Shown here: positions 1 through 31,112 of the stretch, in pieces | How positions within the stretch are numbered: the first letter of the stretch is position 1 | Layout: every line of letters starts with the position of its first letter | DNA from: Raillietiella orientalis | Lineage: Eukaryota | Length of the DNA: 64,000 nt | Direction: 5' to 3' | Assembly (NCBI GenBank): GCA_036172245.1 | Contig: JAYWIR010000027.1 | Coordinates: 1,736,001-1,800,000, forward strand | Translations under genes and position numbers: made by a program | Notes under the pieces: model-generated | What the model was told of the DNA's origin: nothing | The model's database searches: none | What the model saw: only the letters and a program-made list of their open reading frames with translations

Positions 1-141
1 TATCAATTCCACTTGAAAAAAACAAAGCAAAAAGAAACGGTATGCTTTCGAACACAAGTTTGCGTAATCTGTAACTGAAAACAGTGTATAAATGATGGGA
101 TTCTATCAGAAAGGTGATTCAGGTAACGTTCTATTCTTCAG

Positions 142-3100
142 AATCAAGACCACTATGCTGTATTGGGGCTGAAACATCTTCGATATTTAGCATCCGAGGA
201 TCAAATAAAAAAAATGTGTAATTATTGCTTTCTTTTTCTATTTGCTATTGTTGGCTTCCAACATTTCATAACTTTTGCATTTTAGACCGACTGAAAGTCT
301 TGAAGTACCACCCTGATAAACAGATTTCAATGGAAACATCCCAGATCAACAACTATTTTTCATGTATCAACAAGGCGTATGAAATATTAGGGAATGCCAC
401 CAAACGAATGTCATATGATTCAGTTGATCCATTCTTCAATAATGACGTTCCAGCCTGCAATTTACATTCAAAAATGCATTTTTTTGAGGTATGTTCGTTT
501 TCCTGTATATTTGGTGATTGCTCCAGTACACAGGTGAAAAAAATTTAACAAACTAAGGTTCCTATACTTCTTGAAGGTGAATATTGATATTTTAGTATGT
601 AGTATTGCAATGATCAAATTGGATTCTTGATGATGATGCAGTTAGTGGAAACTGAACAGGGGGTTTATCAGGTGCTACAGCATGTTATATAAAGTACTGT
701 TTTTTGGATGAGAAAGCACTTGCTGATAGTTTATAGGAAATGTTCCAAGCTTTCTGATGCATATACCTAAATTAGATGGACTTTTTTATTGTCTAGGTTT
801 TTCCTTTATCTTATTTTAAAAAAAAAGAGGTTTTTTTTTATAAATATATAAAAGTAAACCAAACAAAATAGTTGGTCAAGAGAAATTTGCTGATGCCTTC
901 TATATTTTTAAATAAACATCTTACTTTTCCAAATTGTATCGTTTTAATTTTTCTCTTTTGACTCGATTATAAATAGCAAACTAGCATGGTTTTGCATGTA
1001 AAGTGCAGCTCCAAAACTGCTGTCGATCCTTATTTAGTATGCATATGTTGGAAATAAGCTTATGTGACTGGTTTCCACAACTGAAACATTCACATTAAAA
1101 ATTCAATGCATAATGTATGTGGTGCACAAGCTATGTACGGCACTTATCGCAAAATTTTAATTTTATTTTATTATTTTGAAAATCATGCAGGCAATGAAGT
1201 TTTATTGAGCAAGGAGCTTTGGACAAAAGAAAAAAATGCATGTTTTGTGCAAAACTGGCACTGAAAGTAGCTTTACTGCATGCATAGCTCCTTGTTTCAA
1301 CATAGATCTAAGTAGCACAACTTGATTTGGGTGAAGGCAAAGTAGGAAAATTACATATAAATTAAGGAAAGGAAAACAGATTTAGATGTTAGAGCAGTCA
1401 GATGTGTAGCAGGTGAAGTAGGCTATCTTTTAGTAGCTCCTTTCTTGACCCATGTTTGGTGAGTCTTGATCAGATATGTATATGCAAATGGTGCTTTCCC
1501 TTATTTTGCAGTGCTAGAAAAAGTTACTAATGGTTATAACCCTCAAATAAGGCCTTCCTGCAGCATGGACTAAAAATTCAGTCCTGCATGCATATTTCCC
1601 ATGTTCTCCTGCTGTTACCCAGAGTTTGAACAGGAAACAACACTGCTGCAAAGGCAAGTCAAGGTCTCTCCCTTCAGAGTATGATTATACATGCTACAAT
1701 GGCAAAGGTTGTTTGGCATCTTGTCTTTCTGATGGCACACATAACTAGCATGGGATTTGCTAGGCTGTCTTGTTCTCACCCATATGTCCAGTTTTAAGCA
1801 TCACTCATGATACCAGTGGGTTTACATGGTGGTTTTAGCACATACCAATGCCAAAGGTAGTAAGAAACTGATCAGAGGGTTTTGGTGTCAGTCACTTGGC
1901 TCTGGGCATCTATTAGCAGTTTATGCATATGTAGCTGTTTCCACGTACACTCTGAAGTCCTGAGTGTGTGTGCAAAATGTCAGCAACCGCATCCATGGGT
2001 TGGGTGGTACTTACAAGCCACCACCACAACCCAATAGTGCTAACTCTAGCCTTGGTGTCTCATGTTCGATCGAGATTTCTATTGATTCATTGAATTTGTA
2101 ACCATCATGATTTGCTTGGTCTTCTGTAAGGTGTCATTGCCAACTAAGACATGAAGTGAAGTCATGAAACGAATGCCCTGATAGAATTGGTTACATCGAA
2201 AGATTTTTATGTAGGTGTTTGCTCCCGTTTTCGAAAGGAATGCAAGGTGGTCCGTAGTGAGTTCCGCCCCTTTGCTGGGCGACGAAAATTCAGACAGAAA
2301 TGCAGTCGAAGAATTCTATGCCTTTTGGTATGCATTCCAGTCCTGGAGAGAATTTTCTTACCTAGATGAAGAGGAGAAAGAAAAGGGTCAACAGTACGTA
2401 TGAGTCCTTATGATTTTCGCTAGTGGGGGGGGTGAGGGGGGCGCCTTCAAAAAGAGGGAGGGGACGCGGAGCCTTTGTTGAGATTATTTTTTTGCTGATT
2501 CCCGGTTACTACTGCGGCGGTCAAATGTTCATATACCAGATGAGGATACCAATTCATGAAATTGATGTCAGTGGGAATCCTCCCGTTATCGATTCAAAAC
2601 ATCGTTTCAATTCTTTTGTGTCACTCGTCTTTGTAGTGTTTCCAAAGACGAAATGGAGTGTTTGGCTGCTCGTAAAGGCAGCAACCTTCTATTTGCGACT
2701 TCTGCATAACATTTCGATTTGCTTGTCCGTGAGTGACCTTTTGAGGCTGGTTTCAGCACGCGATCCAGTCTTCCCTTAGCAACCGTATAAGTGTAATAGT
2801 GCAACACGTGACGCGTGCTGTTGCTGAGAATCTCGTGCCGCGCTTTCTAACATAGGATGTCGGTGAAAGCACTGCCGTTTCCCGTCAAAAGAAGCATCAC
2901 GTGATTACGCGGCTACTTGGTTTCTTCCTAATACGTTCTTACTGTTATCTTCCTGCTGCTTACATCAGGGTTACTGCGTAAGGAACGATCCCTTGTCCTC
3001 TCCTAGCGCCTCCGGATGGAGGCAATAACTGCATTATTACTGCTGCGCCCATGCATGCTGAGGAGGGGGCAGCCTGCAGTTCATACTGGGAATCTGGAAA

Positions 3101-4945
3101 TTAATTCTTTTTCTCGTGGAAAACTATCACTGGAGTCGACCCCTCTTGGTATTCGTCCCTTGACCGGGTGACCTCGCGTTGTTTCCTTCTAGGACGTTGA
3201 ATGCTTCCGCGCGTTGACCAACTGCGTGGTCCAGGCATCGTGCTGGGAGTGTGGTTCCTGGAACCTTCCGCGGGGATTTGGCATGTAGATGGCTCGAAAG
3301 CTGCTGGTGGAACAACCCCAAGGCTTCTAAACGTCTACTCTCAAACGGTTTCTTTTTTACCGCGCCTGAAAGGATTCCCCGTGTCCACCTAGTTCGGGGA
3401 TGATTCAGGAATCTTGTCTACCATCGAGACGCGCGTGCGTCTGACCACCGAGTAAAATACGTGATGTTGCGGTTCGTGTGGGCGCTCTCCTCTCGTATTG
3501 CATGGTTGGCTTCCTCCTTTGAACCAAAGAACCGAGCGATTCAACTCGCGATGCAACCCCGTAGCCGTGAAGAACGCAGGTGGATAGAGAAAAAGAACCG
3601 TGCGGCGAGGGTCCGTCTAAAGAAGGAAGAGATGTCACGCATCCGGAAGCTGGTGGACAACGCTTATGCCTGCGACCCGCGCATTCAGATGTTCAAGTTG
3701 CAGGACAAAGAAGAGAAAGAGATGCAGAAGAAGGAAAAGATGGCAAACATTCAAAAAAAGGAGGCCCAGGAGCAAGAGGTAGCAAGGTTCACCTCGCTTG
3801 CAGTTCCATTTTCTTTTGTTACTGGCAGAAGAAGCAGCAGGCCTTGGAAGCAGAGGAGCACGCCAAGCAGGCCGCACTCATGGCAGAGAAGTTGCTGCAG
3901 GAGAAGCAGAAGAAGGAGAGAAACGCAGTCCGCAACTCCATGAAGAAGGAACGCAAGAACCTGCGGCTGCTGCTCGAGAGTGCCGGATACTTCGCTTCAG
4001 ATGAAGTGGAGAAGGTACAGCACATGGTGGACGTGGAACGGCTGGTGAAAACGTACGAATTGGAAAGGTGAAAAGGACGCGGAGATAATGTCGGTGCGGT
4101 TCGCTTAACGGGTGGTCCGGCTGCTTGCCTTCCCACAGACTGAAAGAGCTGATCGCTCGGCTGCGGTCCACCGAGAACCATGAGGAGCAGCGCGAGATCT
4201 TCATGCGGGAGATGACGAGCTTTCGGCAACAGGAGCATTCCCAGGACGATTCCTTGGACGCTCCCCTCCGTGTGGCGGACACGGGTGTCCAGAGCAACGG
4301 CGTCAGCGCCGCCCAGGCGAGACCCGTAGATCCTTTGCTGCTGAGCAAAGCCTTCAATCTCTTCCCAGCCGGTACGGTCTCAAGGTAAAGGGTCTACGAA
4401 AGTTGGAGGTAAAGGGTGAAATCCACAACAGATGGGAAACCATCACGGAATTCATCAATGAGCACAGCAGCGAGCGCTATAGCGTGAAAGAGATCCTGAC
4501 GCAGGCTCAGCAGCTTAAGGAGATCAGACACACTAGGATGAACAGGCAGAATGAAAACGGCAAGGACGACCCAAGCATGCATAAAAGTAATTTTTGCGAG
4601 CACTCTTTCGTCCCGCCTCCACACACGCACACAGATGACAGCTGCCTTTGTTCTTTACTTTTTCTTCAGAACCATGGACGCTGGAGGAGCAACGCCTTCT
4701 GGAGCACGCGCTTAAGAGGTTTCCCCCTTCGGTGCCGGCCCGCTGGGTGCGAATAGCCGAGTGCCTCCCGCACCGCAGCGTCAACGAGTGCATCCAGCGG
4801 TACAAGGTGAGAAAACGGGAAAGAGGAAGGATATCCTCACACTTGCGGGCGCGTTATTCTGCAGGATCTCGTGGAGATCGTACGGCAGAAGCGGGAAGCG
4901 GCGGCGGCGGCAGCAGCATCTAAGTGCAGCCCAGATCGTGCCTAG
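142..4945 (+). CDS. DNAJC2: DnaJ homolog subfamily C member 2 (zuotin/MPP11); 5'-partial spliced CDS: 142-217, 286-488, 2215-2393, 3565-3778, 3829-4067, 4139-4384, 4432-4586, 4670-4806, 4865-4945
   Basis: Exons join in phase across GT-AG introns. They give a J-domain ([10 protein letters not shown]...VLKYHPDK), the zuotin region ([56 protein letters not shown]) and two SANT/Myb repeats ([29 protein letters not shown]...[22 protein letters not shown]). Stop TAG at 4943-4945. Confidence 0.96.
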
Positions 4946-7900
4946 GCGGGTTGCTCTGCAGGAGCTTCATAATAAACGGGTTGCCGTGGGACATGACCTC
5001 GGCTTGCAATTTCATCTGGAGGTCGCGGAATTCCGCGTCGGGCATGTCCTCCATGGCCGCGCTCCTCAGCTCGTCCACGTACCTCTGCATGATGGACACT
5101 GCTTCCTGAAATCACACAGCATCCTGAGGGTTGGGCGGGATCTTGCACGTAACACACGAACCGTCTCCGAGGAATCGCCTTCGACTCGGTCGCGATTCAA
5201 CAGCCTGCTTTCTCCTCCCACATACCTTCCCAGCTTCTGTGCCATCTCCTTCGCCGACTACAAACGCACCAAAATGGCGAGCGGTAATAGAGCGGGAAAT
5301 CGCCGTTCTTGCTCACCTCGATCACCTCTTTTGGGAACTGCACGAGTTCCGCTATGCTGATGCCGAAACTCTGGTCGCACGTCCCGGGAGTGACCTGATA
5401 CAGCAGGGTCAGCGATCCGTCTGCTGCGAGTGCCTCCACATGAAGGTTGCTGACCGTCTTCAGGTCGTGTGCCAAGGCCGTTAACTCATGAAAGTGGGTC
5501 GCGAAGAGACAGAAAGCCCTGATGTTAACAGCGATGTGCCTGTGGGTGACGGCAAAGTGACCCTCGGACACGAGAGAATAGGAGCGCTCACTCAGCAATG
5601 GCCCACGCCAGCCCGAAGCCGTCGTAGGTCGACGTACCCCGCCCTAGCTCGTCGATTATGATCAGAGATGACGACGTCGCAGACTGCGACAACCACGGAA
5701 GAATTAGCAGAAGATGGGAAAGGAGCTCTTACTTTCAAAATGCTGGCAGTCTCGATCATCTCGGACAGGAAGGTGGACATCCCCTTGATCTGGCAGTCTC
5801 CTGCGCCCACCCGCGCCATAACGGCGTCGACGACGCTTATCTCAGCCGCCTCGCAGGGGACGAAGCATCCCATCTGCGCCATGAGCACGATCAGCCCCAC
5901 CGATCGGATGAACGTGCTCTTGCCGCCCATGTTGGGGCCCGTGATGATGTGGAACGTCTTGTCACCTGAGAGGAGAAAGGGGAAAGTGCATGCACGGGTT
6001 CGGGATGGATCGGTGGACAGGGGCAGACGCACTCTTGTCGAACGCCACATCATTGGGGATGAAACTCATGGCTTCCTGCAACTCCAGGATGGGATGGCGA
6101 CCTTTTCTGATGCGGATAACACCGCCTTCGGAACTGAGGAACTGCGGGCGCACGTACGCGACAGGGGCCTGGGCGGCGACGGTGGCGAAGCTCACCAAGA
6201 CATCCAGGACGGCTATGACGCTGTTCAGATCTTGCATCGGACGGCTATAGCCAGCTGGAATGAAGTTTGTTTGTTTGTGTTTCTCCCCAAAAACGAAAAA
6301 AAAGGTGGGACGGAGAGAGCGGACTGGGGAAAAAGTTTACGACGTTTGAATTTGTAAGACGGGAAAATGAGACCCATTTCGATTTTCGAAAGATCTTCCA
6401 GAGGCATACCAAGCGCACGCACACCCTTTGAGACCACGAGATGCTTCTCGGTTTGGCGCGGGCGGATCACGTGGTCTGGAAAGAGCGGAAACGAACAAAC
6501 GCAGATCTACAGACATTGCCCTGTTGCAGAAAATGACGCTCCTTTGGAGAAAGGAGAGTACAATTGGCTTCTTTTTTCTTCTTCTGCTTCTTCCTTTACC
6601 TTCGTTGAACCCGCGACTCGAGAATGAAGCAAGAGTCATTTTATATACTCATCCTCGCAAACACTTTTGCAAGGGAGACCTCAGGCCCCGGAATGTCATG
6701 GGATAATACCCACGTGAATGGTGAACGCTTCCCTAACGAGTCCGCGTTGGCGAGCTGGCAAGAGTGATCACGAAACTCCGTTCCCAATCCTAAAGCAAGC
6801 CACGGCTAATTCATCCCGCGAATCCCGGTTCATCCAGGCGCTTGCGCTCGTAGACGTCTGACCCTTGCGCAGAGATGCCGCCGTTCTTGCAAGACCGCAA
6901 TGGCAGGAGTACGGCAACGATCGCAAAGAGTGCTGACTTGCGCTGGCTGCTATCTGGCTGAGCAGCACTCGGCGTTGCATCCGAACCCGTTGGCTGATCC
7001 GGCTTGGATGTACAGCACCCCCTCCGCGCCCACTCCTCCCGGTCGGAGACGCAGACTCTGGCAGCGCGGATGACCACCGAGCAACGAAGAGAAAGAAACA
7101 AACAAGGCCGCACTTTTTAGACTCTGCAGCCAAGTAGCACACCGCGGAGCTCGCGCACGCACTGGGACGACGAGAGCGTCACTCTCTGCCACCCCGTCTG
7201 CGATGCTGCGTGGAAACAAGGAACCATGCTTTCAGTGCACGACTTCTTCACCCCCGAAAGTCACTGAAGCAGGTTTCACGTATCGAAAATGCAACAGTAA
7301 CGACGGCAGAAGCGTGCGAGGACGGCGCACGTCGGCTAGCCACCGAAATTCGACGTCGTCAAGACGAAACACCGACTTGAGACTTGACACGTCGTCGGAA
7401 ACCAAGGCAGAGGGAGAAGCAGGAAATAGAGTGGTGGATGGAATGCCGCTCGGATGGATGGAATTACATGCAAGACGACCAATGCGTTCGAGACTCTCAA
7501 CTCAAACAACCATTCAACTCGGAAACAACAACAAGAACCTGCGATTTTCAGCATCTCCTTGATGACGCTAACTTGCTGCTCGTTGTAGCTTTCCTTGAGG
7601 CTCATCCATTCCTCGTTCAGGCTACTCAACCGGTCGTTGCGGAAGCGAACACCGTTCTTATTGGTGTCGACGATCTTGAGGAACTTGTGGCCGCGCAGAC
7701 ACCTCTCTTCCTGGCAACAGTCTTTCGCCCTATGGGCCAACAGGGTTGCAACAAACTTTGCGGGTCACCCGGAAAAAGTATCCCATCTGACTGTTCGATT
7801 CCAGCTTCAAAACTTTCTGTGCCTCCACGCCGAGATCTCCGGCCATCCTGCTCAGCAAGCCCTGTATAGTCTGCTGCAGTTCCGACAGCCGCTCGGATAT

Positions 7901-10900
7901 TTCTTTCATCCCAGAATAGAGATAGTACCTCAATACGGAAGGGTCCTACCCAACAGCGACGAATCGAACTCCGGTTTGATGACGTACTCTCCTTCTTCCG
8001 CAGACTTCAGTTCCATGGTTGTTTCAATCATGTTCTGGAACTTGCTGAAGTCAGCACTGAGATCCTCCATGGGCTCGATGAAATAAGACCGGATCACATG
8101 GTAGTAAGCAGGAGCTTTTCCCAAGAGTGCGACGATCGAGGCAAGCTGACCGATGGCTTTGTAAGCTCTGCAAAAGGGAAAGAAAATTCGGCATGGCGAA
8201 GAAAATAAAACAAGTGATCCGTTCTGCTCTTAAGCCTCGCGTGCTTTCTGCCAAACAACCACTGCATCCAGTCCGAAGATATGAATGACCATTTTGTTGA
8301 CCTTTCGTTTCCCCGAAACTTGGCAGATCGCAAACTACACGAGCGGTTTCGGTACGAGGACAGACAACTCGCCTTCATTTCGTTACGGCTTTGAAGTACC
8401 ATACGAGGGCTCCCCGGCATCCGGCCGTTTCTCGAGAGAACGCCAAATGCGCGCTAACGTTCTCCGATTGTGCGTCATTACAGTCTCACGCGGATGCAAG
8501 AACGTCTCGCATGGAACGTTCGACATTGCCAAATTCCAAAGTGAGGCGACACTTGCGTTGGAAAGCAACAACAGTTCGAGGAGCAACCCTGCGGGCGGAC
8601 ATCTGTCTACATTAATATGAGTCAAGTCCCTCCAAACGAGTAAACCCCTTGCCCCCGCGGGCTTTAATGATTGCTGCCTTTTACAATGAGGGCATTATTG
8701 AGGAGCCATATCGATCGATCACAACGCCAGCTTTCGGGGATGAGGGTCTGGAAGCAAAGCAAGTGAAGGCAGCACCTGTAACAGTCCTGTAAATTTGCCT
8801 GCTGCTTCTGAAATCTCCTGGACAGTCTCTCGAAATCCGGCATCCTTGCGAGAAAGTTCTCCCGAAGAAGCTGCCGCAGCTCAGTGCTATCCAGAAAAGT
8901 CTGCACGATGCAGAGTCTGTCCCCTGGACAAACAAAACCCGAGCATCGCGAGCGAGAAAGACAACAGCGATACTAACCAATTTTATTTACGTCCGTCAGG
9001 GGTTGCTTGATCCACTTTAGAAGCAATCTCTGCCCTTGCGTCGTCTTGCAAACATTCAGCAGTCCAAACAGATTCTTTGTGGATGTGCTGCTTTCTCCGG
9101 TGGAGGGAAGGATGTTCAGGGCTTTCATTGTGGCACTGTCTAGTTTGACATGCTCCTTGAAATCGATGGCGTTCAGTGAAAACTGGTTGAAGTTTGATTC
9201 ATTGGAAGTGAGCTGAAAGCATACTCTCCACAAATGGTGCACGGAGAAAAATCAAATGAAACCTCGAGATATTTAATCAGGGAAGCCAAGCAAAGGCAGC
9301 TAGCTTGAGAAGTGAGCTCAGGAAGAACAGCAGCATTGGTATGCATGCCTTTTTTCCAATGAAGAAGTCTGTTGAGGTCCTGGATCAGTTCTTTGGAGTC
9401 AAAAAGCGCCTTCTTTATTTCAGTAATGCAGACGTGATTTCTCTTTAATATCTAAACACACACACACTAGCATAGATCAGCAGGACGAGCATCACCTCTT
9501 TGATTGTTCCATAAGAGCCATGTGAATCTACTGGTAGCAAACATTCTTTTGGTCCCAGCTGCAAAACAAGGCATTCCAGCAGGCTATAATGCTCGTTATC
9601 TTGGAATTCAGAAACGGAAAAATATCTGGAACTTACATCGGCAAAAGCAATCCCTAAACTCTGATACAAAAGTTATTGAGCTGAATGTCATGAAAATACT
9701 AACATTATGTCCGACATGTTTCAGAAACAATGATATAATCCCTGATGTGGTGGGAGTATCTGTTCCTTTATACAAAACATCTTCCAGTTGTGAAAAATTT
9801 CCAGGTGAAGCCTGATATCAAACTATCATCATGAAACAATCCAAGGAATTACATGCAAAATTTATTTACACAAAAATATCACCTCTGTCAATGACATGTC
9901 ATCTAAACTGATGCACAAAAAAAAAAGAAAAACAAATTGGTGCTTGCAAAAATATGAAATACTAAAATGACTGTTTGATGCTGTTCGAAGACCAAATAAA
10001 GATACAAACAAAATATCTCTGCGCTTTTTCAAAAGTTCGGGAAGCCATAAGGCTTGCATGTTTATGACCAAAAACATTATTCACTAAAACCTACACAATG
10101 ATTTCCAAAATGTGCTGCCAATTTTACAAAATTTAAGTGAAGAAAATGAATACATCTTTAGTAACAAGTATAACGGTGAATACAATAAGCTCATTGATAA
10201 TGATCAAAGGATGATCAGAAGCAAGTTTCCAAATACCTAACGATTGAAGCAAACTAAGAATTTAAAGACAGAACGAAGCTGTCACTGAAGGCAAATATCA
10301 GTCTAAGTGACTGTGAAATTTTCATTGGCAAAAAAGATTGACTCTCTTCACCAAAGCAACTCTACCTCAAGTAATGATGAAAGATAAGCTATCAGGACAA
10401 CATAGTTCCTACAAAAATCCAATGACCAAAAGTTACAATGATGCCAGTGCTTTGCAGAAACTGGATGCACAAACAGAAGAAAATGTTAGTCATCAATCAC
10501 TTTATTCTGAATACAAAATGAAAGCAAATCAGCTTACTGAAGGCATCATGAATTGAAAAGATAGTACAGTAGTCACATAAAGGAGAGGAAAACATTGTTC
10601 CAAAAGGACAGCTAATCTGACAACCTCGTAAAAGCTTTCCTTGATTGTGATAGCTCCAGCAATCAGTAGCTTACAAAAAAAAATTCGAAATCTGCAAGTG
10701 AAATGTCTTCCAGAGAAGACTTCATGCAAGTTATGAAAAAGGTGCACATTAATCTCGTAACAAATACTATGCTGCAATTCAGTCTACATAATACAAACCT
10801 GACAAGCTAAATTCCAGTCTTGATTCCTGTAGCCTTTATAAATTTCAATTTTGTACTGCCGATTTAAAAGAAGATCCCTGATGATATGTTCAAAATTTGA

Positions 10901-13452
10901 TGTATTCAGAATAACATATGGGATTCGGTTGCCACCTATATTTTAGACAAAAAGCACTTAATAAAGTTGTTTGTTAGTTGTTGCTAAGTACATCACATGG
11001 CAGCTCAATCTGTAATGTGGACAACTATTGCCTGATTACAGAACAATTCTAAACTATATTAAACAATGAAACAAATACAAAACTGATAAAATGATCAAAA
11101 TATTATATACTAAAACTAATGGAATCATAAAATTGGAAAGAAATTTACCGGAATCGATGTACTTCAGTATTCCAGTTGTCTTGAAAATTTCTTTGGCAAT
11201 AAATTGGGAGTCAACCCCATACACACTGACATAATCATTTCTGTCAAAAAAACGGAATGTGCTGGCTGGTTTCTATTCATACAGGAAAATAAGATATTCT
11301 TAAATCAGAAGTTTATGCCTTTTAAGATGAATCAGTGCAAACATGTTTTGTAAACTCAAAATACTGTAGAACCAAAAAAATGAACACCCATATGGGAATG
11401 TTTGCGAAATTTGTTCCTTCCCTCGAAATTATAAAAGGCAAAACTGCACTCATTTTCTACCCATAGTATTAATTACTTATACTGGAACTAATTCTCCATA
11501 TTTTATTGCAAGGTCTGATAAAGGAAAGTTAATTTTCCACATTTAATTGAAATCATAATCCCCTTCATCCATAACACGTTAAAAGCAGATCAATTCCTTG
11601 TTTTCTCAGGTTATGGACTGTTTAATCATCTTATACATACTTATTAACTGAAATATGATTTATAATTATCACAAATGTGTCTAAAGGTCCAACAGCATTT
11701 CTTCAATAAGATATGCTTCATTATGTCTGAAGTTTAAAATTTTTAATAACTGCAAACAAAACTTTTTCATTTCTTAATTTTTTTTTGAAGTTTAGTTATT
11801 CAACCAATATCAAAACTGATTTACTGTTAACAATAAATGATTCCAATTGTTCTGAGACATACATCTGAACATGAATATAAACACATCCGAAGTTTACATA
11901 AAAACAGCTAACCTCAGCAATATTCGGCTATATTTTGTTTTCATTCTTAGCAGATTCGCAGATAATAATTATTATGTTTTATTGGATTTAGTAATTATTC
12001 TTGGAATTACAGTAATCACCTTCATATTTTTCTGATCATATTATGGTTTAACAGCCAATAAGTACACATAAATCCATTTGCCCTTGTTGAATCAAATAGT
12101 AACTTGCAAAATGCAAAACCGCATTTGAAAAAATGATACTAATCAACCACCCTGAACTTGTTTTTTTTTTTCCTTTTCCAAAAGTAAATGTCCTGATTTC
12201 AATGGATCTTACTGATCACCAGTTTTTAAAATAGCGATCTGGTTCTCAATTGGAGAATAAATTCAAACTCTAAAACAAGTACCTTAGTTTTTTATGTAAG
12301 TTATTGAAACAGGTTTGTGTGGGAACTGTATTCAAGTGAGAATGGCTTTGCAAATTTGATCCAGGTTCCATCAATGTCAAATAAAGCACTCCAAAAAGGA
12401 TCATACATAATGATAATTTAAGAGAGTAATGTAAAAAAGTAATTCGATGTTACATAAAAATAAATATCTTGTTAATAGGTGATTGCTTTCATTATTTGAT
12501 CTTGTGGTTGACAAGTCTGCACTTACGATCAAACAAACCAAACTGCCACTCTCCCAAAATTTCATCATGAATTCATATCAAATTGTGTTTTTCTGCACAA
12601 AATTTTCTATTATAAACATTACTAATGCCAATTTGTAATGTGCAAAAAATTAAGTTGGTCATTTTTCATGGATGCTGCACTAATTTTATAATAATACAAA
12701 TTAATTTGGGTGCTTAAAACACAGACATCCTTTATATTGAATAAAAAAACACAAAAACAGAATTTCTGTCTTAGGGTATTTATGTATTTTTCTACTACCA
12801 CATATGCAAAAACATTTCAAATGGAGATGCACTGAACGATACCTTTTCAACTTACTGAATATATTTATGAAAACTAAAACTCACTTTGCCGCCAACAACT
12901 TCTGTTGGTCATACAGTAAAAACATGCCACTGCCAATTATACATAATAAATATCAATGTAGTGTAAAATCAAACACATAAACAAAACAAGTTTCATGATA
13001 ATATAACTAAATTTTGAGGGTAAACTGTAAGGCTAATTCCAATAAGTGTAAGTATATTTGTACAGATCCACAAGTGGGTAAAAGATGTATCTCCGACGAA
13101 ACCTCATGGTCTTTCCATGGGGAGGCAATGATGGTTTATCATTGCAACCATGAAAATTCGGTCAACAATCTTTCTGGCTAATAGCAGAAAACTATCCATC
13201 CCCCAATAAGGATTTTACCAATTATAAGAAAGAATACACTTGAACTTAATTAGAACCATTCCAATAAAACGCTGAAATTGATGTTCTGCGTTTACATTCG
13301 GTAAAAAACTCGAAAACTTAACTTACCTCTGGCAGGTTGGCATAGAAAGTTAAAAAACTCGATTCGTGTGAAACACCTAAAATACATAAAGAAATACATA
13401 AAGTATTGTCGCGCATGGGATTCGGGGTTATCTTACTGCTTGGTGTATCCAT
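4920..13452 (-). CDS. MSH2: DNA mismatch repair protein MSH2 (MutS homolog 2), many GT-AG exons; probable ATG at 13452, last exon 5105-4920
   Basis: Exons encode [80 protein letters not shown] (Walker A), ARVGAGD...[53 protein letters not shown] and the C-terminus [15 protein letters not shown]. Stop TAG is the complement of 4920-4922. The tiny first exon is the least certain part. Confidence 0.96.
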
Positions 13453-13699
13453 GCTTGCATAATGAGAAATCAAAAGTTCTCAAGAAAGTATAGCCTTCAA
13501 AACATGCTGCACCTAGGGAATTCAAAGTTCGCTCGAAAGCCTTCACTACAGCTAAGAATTACCAAATGCGTCCTCTTTATTTAAATAATACGATAAAGCA
13601 TCAATCTAGAATGCTGCAATCCTTTTTTTTAGGCTTCAGTATGAAATTTACGACTTGATGTAAGAAAAAGTTAATGCATATTTGAAAAAGATACTTCAA

Positions 13700-16600
13700 A
13701 AAGATTGAAAACTTTATCTGACATATTCGTATGTTTTTGAAAGTTTTCGTCTGTATTAATAAAAACTGTGAGCAACGAGTTTTCTATTCAAAGTTGAATG
13801 TTTTATAAAAGACAAAATTAAAGAGGAAATGCAGCTCGCATGAGTTAATATAAATCAAACAAATAAATGAATAAAGGGAAATCATCTTCGAAAGCTTTGA
13901 GAGAATGAGCCATAAATTACACTATAAGTATTTGAGGAAGTAGCCAGCCAAGTGACTTCCGATGTATACAACAATGCATTATTTGCTTAAAGTAAGACCA
14001 GTCACATCAGGTAATAGTAACAGATCACATATTTGTTCATCCTGTATTACTGGAGCATCGAAATTATCCAAAGATTGTATCCAATAAATTTCAACAAAGC
14101 CTTGTGCATTATAAAAAGAAATAAGGATATAAAGTAAACCTTGCGAGAAAGAAATCTGGAGAGCAGTTTAAATCTTTTTTTAATATTAAGTACATTTAAG
14201 AAATATGTCACAAAAGCAAACATCTAAGAATTGGAATATGAAATCAGACAAAAAGGCAACTTCCATTATTTCAGGTTTCATTCACTATGAACTTATATTT
14301 TTATTTTCAAGTTCTCTGTATATGTATCTAGATTTAAATATCATTGTATAATAAATAAAAAATTTTATGTTTCTGGAAAAAGTTGAACCTATGATCTATA
14401 TTGATATATTCAAGATAGACTCTTTAAGTTAAGTTATTTAAGCCCGAATCCACAAGTGTATTTTGTATGTTGTATCATTACCTTCCATGGTTTGAGCAGT
14501 CTGTGATGTAACGTCGCTCATTCCCTGCTACTGACTAAACCTCCGACGGGTATAAGGAAGAAATACACATCAATCCATAACTAAAATACTGAACTCCAAG
14601 AAGCTGAAGGAATCAAAAGTTCCCATATGCTCCCACGTTTCCTTGAGTCTTTCAAGCAGACGTTAAAATCTCGACAGGCCTACAGATTCAAATAATTCCC
14701 TGAACTAGACCAATGGGATGACGGGCAGCAGCTCCTCAGAAACCAGAGCTTGGTATTGGTTTGAGGTTCACCTAGTATTCCATCGGCCTGGCACGACCGT
14801 GAAATAAGAGCTTCATCCTGTACTTTAAACAGAAGTTTTGATGGGTGTTTGGGTGTTTTTCAAGATATTCAACAGTATCTATGAGGTCTTCACAAGGACG
14901 AAAAAATGTATATTGAAATTCATGTATGGGATGACAAACTAGACATGGCGTGTAGAAGGGTTTAGCGTCAGCGAATTGCACTTTCTATTCGGGAAACGTG
15001 GCGGCTAGACAGATTCATCCGATCGAGCAACAACAGCAGCAGGCAGAGGAGCTGCAAGTTCTAAAACCACCAAAGATATTCTACTTCTGCCTTTCCACCC
15101 TAGTCGTGATTCCAGATTATTAATTCCGGGGGGTCTCTGCCACCAGCTGAGAAACAACGCTGGCAAAGAGATAACGTGTGGGCCGACTTCAAGCAAGGCG
15201 AACGCAGGAAGGGGTGCTCCAACAACCTGAACTGCGCCGTGGTGTCTATGATGAACACAGAGGGCACCTCCCTCCACGTCCTCTACGGGCTGGAATCGTC
15301 TGGATTCGCGCTGGAGTAAGTGGAGGAGCAAACACTTCCGGTAGGCCTCTGTGCTTGTCATCGTCCCCACCAGTGGACGGACAGGCGGCAATCCCAACCA
15401 ACGGCAAGTCGCGCGCAAGACGACGCGCGCGGGCGGTTCAGGTGGATCTCGCTGGCTGTTGGGCCACGTTGGTGATTCGCTTCCTAGACGCCTCAGCAGC
15501 GGGCAGCAGCAGCAGCTTACCACGGAAACGAAGGCACCGAATCCACGAGGAATGTCTGAGCGCGCAGAGCTATCGAGAATTTTTTTCAGCACCCCTCATG
15601 GCGCTCTTCTTGCTGAGCTTACATTGGAAGTCCGACCGAGTCCATCGCAGGAACCCCCTGGAGTATTCTACCAGGAACCAGTGTTCCCAGCCAGAGACCC
15701 CGTCCTCGTTTCTTCGAGTTAAGCACCCGAGGGCAGGATGCTCAAGCAACGCCACAGCTCAGGTGAAGAAAGGATTTGAGGTGTCCCCAAATGGAACAAA
15801 TAATAATCAACATCAAATTCATCTTTACTTAAATCAGTAAATTACCCCCTTGCCTAGATACACCTAGACTATGCCAACACGGAAGCAAGGAGCATTCTCC
15901 TTGCTCCCAAGTTACCTAGACTATGCCAACGCCTGCGAGATGCAACGAACCTGGGCATCGCCTGCGAAACATGTTCTGGCGTGGAGGATCCTCGGGGCTG
16001 GAAAGACAGCTGTTTCCAGCCGCGGGCATATCCGACCTCCGGGGGATGGAGGATGCGGGATAAGGATGGAGGCTCAAGGTTGTCCCTGCACGCCCCTGTC
16101 GGCGGAGAGCCCGGAGACGCAGCCGGCAACACAGGGAGGAGAGTGACGCTGAGAGGGACGAGGGAGCGGCAATCTGCAGGACAAATCGAGTGCGGGGGGC
16201 CTGCAGGCGCACTGGCCTCCGCGCTCCTGTCAGGACACGAGACAAGAGCAACCTCCAAGGCCGGAGGGCGAAGGGTGGCCGCCATTGGCACCCGCTCCTT
16301 GAGGCAGAAAGGGGGAACGGCTCCTTCTTGGCCCGGGAGGGCGCCACCTCGTCAGCCGTGCGTGCGCGCGCGCCGCCTTCCGGGCAAGAAACTGGAAGGC
16401 AGCGCCCTCCCCCCTTCCCCCAGGCACGAGTGCGCCGAGATATAGGCGCAGGAGCGAAGCCGCTGAGTGGGGTCACCGAGCCCTCTGCTCAGAGACCGGT
16501 GTGCTCGACGCCGTCAGGCCTGTCTTGTTCTTATCTTTACCCCCACGGATGAGTTCGGGCGTTCGCGGTGCGGTTGACCCGCAGGGGGGGGGGGGGGAGA

Positions 16601-19430: not shown

Positions 19431-25731
<6,301 letters not shown>

Positions 25732-31081: not shown

Positions 31082-31112
<31 letters not shown>
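31082..31112. repeat. (CA)n microsatellite; another CA-rich tract at ~35918-36002
   Basis: Directly visible dinucleotide run. Confidence 0.95.

Follow-up and report, generated by a model that had tools for sequence, protein, structure and literature searches.

A 26-bp tail-to-tail coding overlap between predicted DNAJC2 and MSH2 genes in Raillietiella orientalis

Results

The stretch of DNA analysed here (64,000 nucleotides of Raillietiella orientalis, assembly GCA_036172245.1, contig JAYWIR010000027.1, positions 1,736,001 to 1,800,000 of the forward strand; hereafter the window, numbered from its first letter) carries two predicted genes, DNAJC2 on the + strand and MSH2 on the - strand, whose exons, as placed by tblastn, lie on opposite strands with facing 3' ends. 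Reading of both strands between 4500 and 5400, together with a listing of the frames from stop to stop, places the 26 bp at 4920..4945 within both reading frames, the two stop codons included. The letters and coordinates are those given in a preliminary description of this DNA, which had claimed a coding overlap of that length between the tails of the two genes. The DNAJC2 frame ends in ...SKCSPDRA followed by TAG at 4943-4945, and the MSH2 frame in ...PRHDLGCT followed by TAG at 4922-4920. Positions 4923-4942 are sense-coding on both strands and, from the coordinates, the codon register within the doubly coding segment is position 1 opposite 1, 2 opposite 3 and 3 opposite 2. We consider it rather probable that these are two intact convergent genes with no spacer between them, that the 26 bp of shared coding sequence is an incidental and tolerated by-product of a local loss of non-coding DNA, and that the genes form a cis-natural antisense pair.

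Support for the two terminal frames

Because conservation of the terminal exons is too low for a Pfam or PDB sequence search, C-terminal profiles were built from the homologues' own tails, one from 93 MSH2 homologues (last 100 residues) and one from 73 DNAJC2 homologues (last 75 residues). Both profiles were compared with the 59 six-frame pieces of 4300-5700. The MSH2 profile had a sole match, the 4923-5111 (-) frame (E 5.9e-7), the runner-up having an E value of 1.6. The DNAJC2 profile recovered the frame of the exon encoding the second SANT domain (E 9.1e-23) and the 4811-4942 (+) frame (E 2.1e-4). The open frames of the two last exons extend over 4811..4945 (+) for DNAJC2 and 5111..4920 (-) for MSH2. 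Furthermore, spliced models of the 3' halves (356 amino acids for DNAJC2 and 349 for MSH2) are in frame, contain no internal stop and end at the stops given above, and all ten of their introns are GT..AG. Homology and in-frame splicing thus fix both terminal frames, which are not chance open reading frames (ORFs). Hence, the family profiles and spliced models bear out the preliminary description, according to which both frames were fixed, and the shared coding bases hold as modelled.

The DNAJC2 gene

The part of DNAJC2 that lies within the window covers 136..4945 (+), its 5' end being outside. Using four homologues as tblastn queries, its exons were placed from 136 to 4806, to which the last coding exon is added by the profile match. 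Pfam finds the DnaJ domain (E 4.4e-10), ZUO1-like_ZHD in two exons (E 7e-22 and 7.3e-13) and the Myb domain corresponding to the second SANT (PF00249, E 3.8e-10). The exon of the first SANT has no Pfam match at E <=0.01, yet it aligns to the homologues by tblastn. In addition, a 71-residue exon at 3566-3778 (+) matches, in a protein search, DNAJC2 of molluscs, crustaceans, echinoderms, rotifers and lancelets. With a J domain, a zuotin homology domain and two C-terminal SANT/Myb domains, the gene is identified from its predicted product as DNAJC2 (ZRF1/MPP11, zuotin-related).

The modelled exons of the 3' half are 3565-3778, 3829-4067, 4139-4384, 4432-4586, 4670-4806 and 4865-4945, and the last five introns measure 50, 71, 47, 83 and 58 nt in the spliced model. 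The penultimate exon (4670..4806) encodes the second SANT/Myb domain and ends in ...ECIQRYK. The last intron (4807..4864, 58 nt, phase 0) is read from the sequence and the spliced model; exonic AAG is followed by the donor GTGAGA, and the acceptor TTCTGCAG by exonic GAT. The last coding exon, 4865..4945, is supported by the profile match and by the in-frame model, and carries a tract of seven alanines encoded by (GCG)4(GCA)3 at 4898-4918. Retention of the last intron, which would end the protein in ...SSI with TAA at 4921-4923, was considered and ruled out, as that frame does not fit the tail of the family.

The MSH2 gene

MSH2 spans approximately 4920..13479 on the - strand. tblastn with homologues laid its exons from about 11272 down to 5308, and a candidate first coding exon lies in 13321-13479, where the match to an N-terminal profile is weak (E 0.018). 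Three consecutive exons (5965-5733, 5683-5592 and 5539-5317, within 5317..5965) encode MutS domain V, including its Walker A motif (GPNMGGKS); they match PF00488 (MutS_V) with E values of 2.5e-33, 1.4e-11 and 6.1e-21, over profile positions 1-73, 75-103 and 105-178 of 188. MutS_III is likewise matched by Pfam. The MutS_I exon has no Pfam match at E <=0.01, but it aligns by tblastn to homologue residues 29-79. The 77-residue exon bearing GPNMGGKS (5733-5963) has best matches of 72-84% identity among the 120 matches listed, and the named ones among these 120 are overwhelmingly Msh2 of sea urchins, insects, molluscs, fish and mammals. On the strength of its MutS domains, its Walker A motif and best matches that are Msh2 and not other MutS homologues, the gene is assigned to MSH2. 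Hence, their Pfam domains, named homologues and open spliced 3' halves identify DNAJC2 and MSH2, at the level of the sequence, as real protein-coding genes.

The modelled exons of the 3' half of MSH2 are 6254-6033, 5965-5733, 5683-5592, 5539-5317, 5257-5162 and 5105-4920, separated by introns of 67, 49, 52, 59 and 56 nt. The penultimate exon (5162..5257) is in frame in the spliced model and, by eye only, resembles the ...AKQKALELEEFQ.IG... of the homologues. The last intron (5106..5161, 56 nt, phase 0), also read from the sequence and the spliced model, has exonic ACG followed by the donor GTTCGT, and the acceptor GATTTCAG followed by exonic GAA. The last coding exon is 4920..5105, in agreement with the profile match. 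We also observed another candidate phase-0 donor, GTGTTA, located 6 nt after GTTCGT (5154-5161, -); its use would give an intron of 50 nt and two extra residues (Val-Arg), and the two donors would yield MSH2 isoforms two residues apart. The frame of the last exon is the same with either donor.

Length and conservation of the two tails

Neither terminal exon has any Pfam domain match. The MSH2 tail, taken as running from the Phe/Tyr of N-x-[FY] to the C-terminus, is 8-17 residues long in 92 of the 93 scorable homologues and 23 in the remaining one (27 of the 120 homologues were unscorable, being fragments or isoforms with other ends); it is 18 residues long in the window. The DNAJC2 tail after RYK has 11-26 residues in the 73 scorable homologues (30 of 103 were unscorable), with a mode of 19-21; in the window it has 26, a length equalled by one of the 73. 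The profile alignments stop 11 residues short of the MSH2 stop, with 6 profile positions left, and 7 residues short of the DNAJC2 stop, with 1 profile position left. Each tail thus extends 5-6 residues beyond the consensus length of its family, and the surplus residues, CSPDRA in DNAJC2 and HDLGCT in MSH2, come from the same bases read in opposite directions.

Tails of consensus length would place the stops at about 4925-4927 and 4937-4935, only 7 bp apart, so that DNAJC2 and MSH2 would abut regardless. The coding overlap, as modelled, is a small extension of a junction without spacer, and the shared bases are predicted to encode only unconserved, dispensable-looking end residues of both proteins.

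Transcript 3' ends

Between 1207 and 8203, AATAAA occurs only once on the two strands, at 4971-4976 (+); this copy starts 26 nt after the DNAJC2 stop and is the probable poly(A) signal of this gene. When 3401-6400 was simulated 2000 times with a first-order Markov model, 5 of the simulated sequences had an AATAAA whose start fell 10-40 nt past the DNAJC2 stop. On the - strand, the same hexamer forms the MSH2 codons TTT (Phe, 4976-4974) and ATT (Ile, 4973-4971), i.e. the Phe-Ile of NPFIM. Both codons are disfavoured: the two 3' halves comprise 705 codons, in which TTT encodes Phe 4 times versus 20 times for TTC, and Ile is encoded by ATT 5 times, ATC 26 times and ATA 6 times. For the pair TTT-ATT, the joint usage amounts to 0.023, and to 0.014 once the focal pair is left out. 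Although observed post hoc, the presence of this rare pair is consistent with selection for a poly(A) signal. Since the signal lies within the MSH2 exon, 26 nt past the DNAJC2 stop, the DNAJC2 mRNA very probably ends inside the last MSH2 coding exon.

The MSH2 3' end must lie within the last DNAJC2 exon or farther. Candidate signal variants, AAGAAA (start 4666) and AGTAAA (start 4659), are found on the - strand at 4654..4666, 254 and 261 nt after the MSH2 stop, and lie opposite the polypyrimidine tract of a DNAJC2 intron, in antisense orientation. Thus, the preliminary description, in which each 3' untranslated region (UTR) had to run antisense into the coding exons of the partner, is backed for DNAJC2; the MSH2 stop is followed by no AATAAA on its strand. 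One may speculate that MSH2 takes its 3'-end signal from the splice-acceptor tracts of its partner.

Two side observations concern such motifs. An AATAAC at 4853-4858 (-), 62 nt after the MSH2 stop, is also antisense to a DNAJC2 intron polypyrimidine tract. Moreover, AATAAA is scarce over the approximately 7 kb of 1207-8203 (one copy), the whole window having 61 copies versus 30.7 expected from shuffles, nearly all of them in AT-rich stretches.

Composition of the junction

Within 1-14500, GC content forms a smooth peak centred on the junction (0.32 at 1-1000, 0.575 at 5001-6000 and 0.28-0.30 at 11001-13000). In both genes, GC content at third codon positions increases from 0.30-0.47 in the 5' exons to 0.65-0.84 in the 3' exons. 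Likewise, the last five introns of each gene measure 47-83 nt versus gaps of 1-2 kb between the 5' exons. Possible causes of the GC peak and the short 3' introns are GC-biased gene conversion or a recombination hotspot. The compaction is confined to the GC peak and the window is not uniformly compact, as the 5' introns are 1-2 kb long and about 40 kb downstream of the pair are almost devoid of recognisable genes. The preliminary description placed the overlap in a repeat-rich region; this does not hold, since Tandem Repeats Finder reports only five short arrays in the 64 kb, the nearest to the junction at 31082.

Search for relatives of the junction

DNAJC2 was absent from the 80 metagenome MSH2 loci kept, as searched by tblastn with eight DNAJC2 homologues; these loci are distant (best exon identity <=65%), many are on short contigs, and they say little about close relatives. 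As to the comparisons suggested in the preliminary description, alignment of the C-termini showed both tails to exceed the consensus by the 5-6 residues reported above, and synteny provided no second case of the two genes side by side in these distant loci. When the last MSH2 exon was compared with PDB sequences, two chance-level matches were obtained (E 1.4 and 1.7), with no MutS protein. None of the literature matches listed was a publication on DNAJC2 and MSH2 as an overlapping pair.

Surroundings of the gene pair

The region 14500-55000 has a GC content of 0.49-0.60, a CpG observed/expected ratio of about 0.83-1.06 and long open frames in all six frames, with almost no recognisable protein domains. 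A Pfam search of the 135 ORFs of at least 120 amino acids beyond 11.5 kb retrieved only two C2H2 zinc-finger ORFs, at 19434-19898 (-) and 21555-22166 (-) (PF00096, E 5.1e-11 and 6e-4), and no further gene pair by which the frequency of abutment could be gauged. A full-length U6 spliceosomal small nuclear RNA gene is located at 20517-20620 (+) (Rfam RF00026, 82.7 bits, E 1.6e-19). A scan for promoters and terminators of prokaryotic type, irrelevant to a eukaryote, gave one terminator-like site versus 0.8 expected.

Discussion

A spacer-free junction with a small coding overlap

In the explanation that we favour, spacer and intron DNA would have been lost locally at the GC peak, and each frame would run a few codons into the unconstrained tail of the partner up to the next in-frame stop. 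MSH2 transcription must continue beyond its own stop, and the probable DNAJC2 poly(A) signal is located inside the last MSH2 exon. With the signal in that place and MSH2 transcribed past its stop, the two mRNAs would share at least several tens of complementary bases, and DNAJC2 and MSH2 probably constitute a convergent cis-natural antisense pair. Transcriptional interference or the formation of double-stranded RNA (dsRNA) and small interfering RNA (siRNA) can occur at pairs of this kind. Nothing indicates that DNAJC2 and MSH2 are regulated through their overlap in either of these ways.

Several points weigh against this explanation. The origin of the overlap by deletion or compaction, although most likely, is one that we infer. 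The segment of high GC content also contains an intron of about 1.3 kb (roughly 6255-7545) and, therefore, the rule of short introns is not absolute there. The closest homologues are only about 48-57% identical, and no close relative was found from which to date the adjacency or the long tails. Sampling of the homologues is biased, most of those of MSH2 being from vertebrates, and predicted isoforms are among them. As for the gene model of MSH2, the match of the penultimate exon to the family profile does not reach significance, and the weak donor of the last intron is the weakest point of the model. The last exon gave nine candidates against a protein collection, none at E <=0.01, and no match at E <=0.001 among 1.84 billion representative proteins. 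Finally, on the MSH2 strand, AATAAA was not found past the stop, the first common variants being 254-261 nt downstream.

Alternative explanations

The weak GTTCGT donor also feeds the suspicion that the overlap is an artefact of the gene models, real transcripts using another terminal exon, acceptor or donor and having no coding overlap at all. A stronger-looking donor, AAG followed by GTATGT, is located earlier in the penultimate MSH2 exon, and GT dinucleotides in the last DNAJC2 exon could in principle serve as donors. However, GTATGT was ruled out since its phase is incompatible with the homology-supported last MSH2 exon. From the codon of Lys-49 of that exon to the stop (the last 45 nt of the coding sequence contain none either), GT is absent and, therefore, no ordinary donor is able to divert the frame. 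The spacing between conserved MSH2 motifs, 58 residues here, is in line with the homologues (60 residues in human MSH2), and the aligned tails are similar. For DNAJC2, any additional exon would need to sit inside MSH2 on the opposite strand. The family profiles fit both terminal frames to within 11 (MSH2) and 7 (DNAJC2) residues of their stops. An artefact of this kind is thus unlikely.

According to a second alternative, the overlap is a functional device, in which sense-antisense pairing of the mRNAs or collision of polymerases couples the expression of MSH2 and DNAJC2. The transcription units must overlap, given that the DNAJC2 poly(A) signal is inside an MSH2 coding exon, and the fact that this signal is made of two disfavoured MSH2 codons hints at selection on the shared bases. 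There is also precedent, in the excerpts of the studies concerned, for convergent mRNAs as siRNA precursors in Drosophila (PMC11840564, PMC4079977) and for co-expression of human convergent overlapping pairs (PMC2330155). In its fullest form, this proposal makes the shared 3' ends a regulatory unit under dual selection: the conserved C-terminal Phe-Ile of MSH2 would be kept as the rare TTT-ATT for the sake of the DNAJC2 poly(A) signal, and the antisense overlap, with the MSH2 3' UTR crossing the last two DNAJC2 coding exons, would tie mismatch repair to the level of a ribosome-associated chaperone via dsRNA/siRNA or polymerase interference. However, selection for the poly(A) signal accounts for the codon choice without any regulatory link, and the overlap is limited to unconserved tails outside the Pfam domains. 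Moreover, the adjacency is missing in all 80 metagenome MSH2 loci (80/80), distant relatives though they are, and the literature matches listed do not link the two genes as an overlapping pair. We hold coupled expression to be improbable, and give equally little credence to the regulatory unit under dual selection. The preliminary description had gone further in this direction, viewing an obligatory pairing or collision that could couple mismatch repair to chaperone expression as implied by the overlap; tails merely 5-6 residues longer than usual, with no conserved domain among the shared bases, do not sustain that view.

An error of assembly or base calling at the junction, be it an indel or a spacer collapsed or left out, appears quite improbable. 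The triplet repeat (GCG)4(GCA)3 stands just before the overlap and, as TAA occurs at 4921-4923 in another + frame, an error of one base in the tract would shift the DNAJC2 stop there. However, copy errors of triplet repeats preserve the frame, 4919-4960 contains no homopolymer longer than 3, the stops would overlap even with the alternative TAA, and both frames are homologous right up to their tails. Lastly, that one gene is a non-functional duplicate whose working copy lies elsewhere, the overlap then having neither cost nor meaning, could be suggested by the DNAJC2 5' end being outside the window, but this is hardly credible given that every homology-supported exon seen is open, that the 3' halves have intact splice sites and no internal stop, and that all expected domains are present.

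The spacer-free junction of two intact genes, if real in transcripts, would be a clean animal example of two conserved housekeeping genes with common coding bases, and of one gene whose poly(A) signal is written in the codons of another. It could then serve as a small natural test case for the tolerance of dual coding and antisense overlap, and for overlaps arising by local loss of non-coding DNA. It opens no new kind of mechanism.

Comparison with known systems

Transcriptional interference is the drop in expression of one convergent gene when its partner is transcribed in cis. Prescott and Proudfoot reportedly dealt in 2002 with such interference between convergent genes. Influence of a neighbour's transcription on MSH2 itself is known from human, where 3' deletions of EPCAM silence MSH2 through read-through transcription and promoter methylation, according to the available excerpts (PMC6503020, PMC3765447). 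The pair described here resembles EPCAM-MSH2 in that transcription of a neighbour is a possible influence on MSH2, the effect being known for EPCAM and none being shown for DNAJC2. It differs in geometry: EPCAM shares the strand of MSH2, lies upstream of it and exerts its effect at the promoter, whereas DNAJC2 is convergent and meets MSH2 at its 3' end.

Endogenous siRNA loci formed by cis-natural antisense transcripts are marked by Dicer-dependent small RNAs of about 21 nt on both strands of the overlap. As at the Drosophila loci of this kind, perfect complementarity of tens to hundreds of bases is expected between the 3' ends of the DNAJC2 and MSH2 mRNAs. In the excerpts of the Drosophila studies, convergently transcribed mRNAs are siRNA precursors via their paired 3' ends (PMC11840564, PMC4079977, PMC3953951). 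Those loci are known from their siRNAs, and the present pair from its DNA sequence.

As regards the catalogues of overlapping animal genes, again as excerpted, coding sequence is common to both partners in 51 of 615 human and 28 of 497 mouse overlaps between different strands (Sanna et al. 2008, PMC2335118), and overlaps of coding with coding sequence are under-represented in animals relative to chance (Solda et al. 2008, PMC2330155). The opinion of the preliminary description that antisense overlap of coding sequences is rare in animals agrees with both. Convergent overlap is the commonest type between different strands in human, mouse and fly (PMC2335118, PMC2330155), and co-expression has been reported for human convergent overlapping pairs (PMC2330155). 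DNAJC2 and MSH2 share with the animal convergent (3'-3') pairs their location on opposite strands, the partial nature of the overlap, the good conservation of both genes and a short coding overlap confined to the ends. They depart from most of the pairs in these catalogue excerpts, which overlap in UTRs only, by the lack of any spacer and by an overlap known from gene models alone. This arrangement is uncommon but not unprecedented and, while the pair itself was not found in the literature, its kind is already well catalogued.

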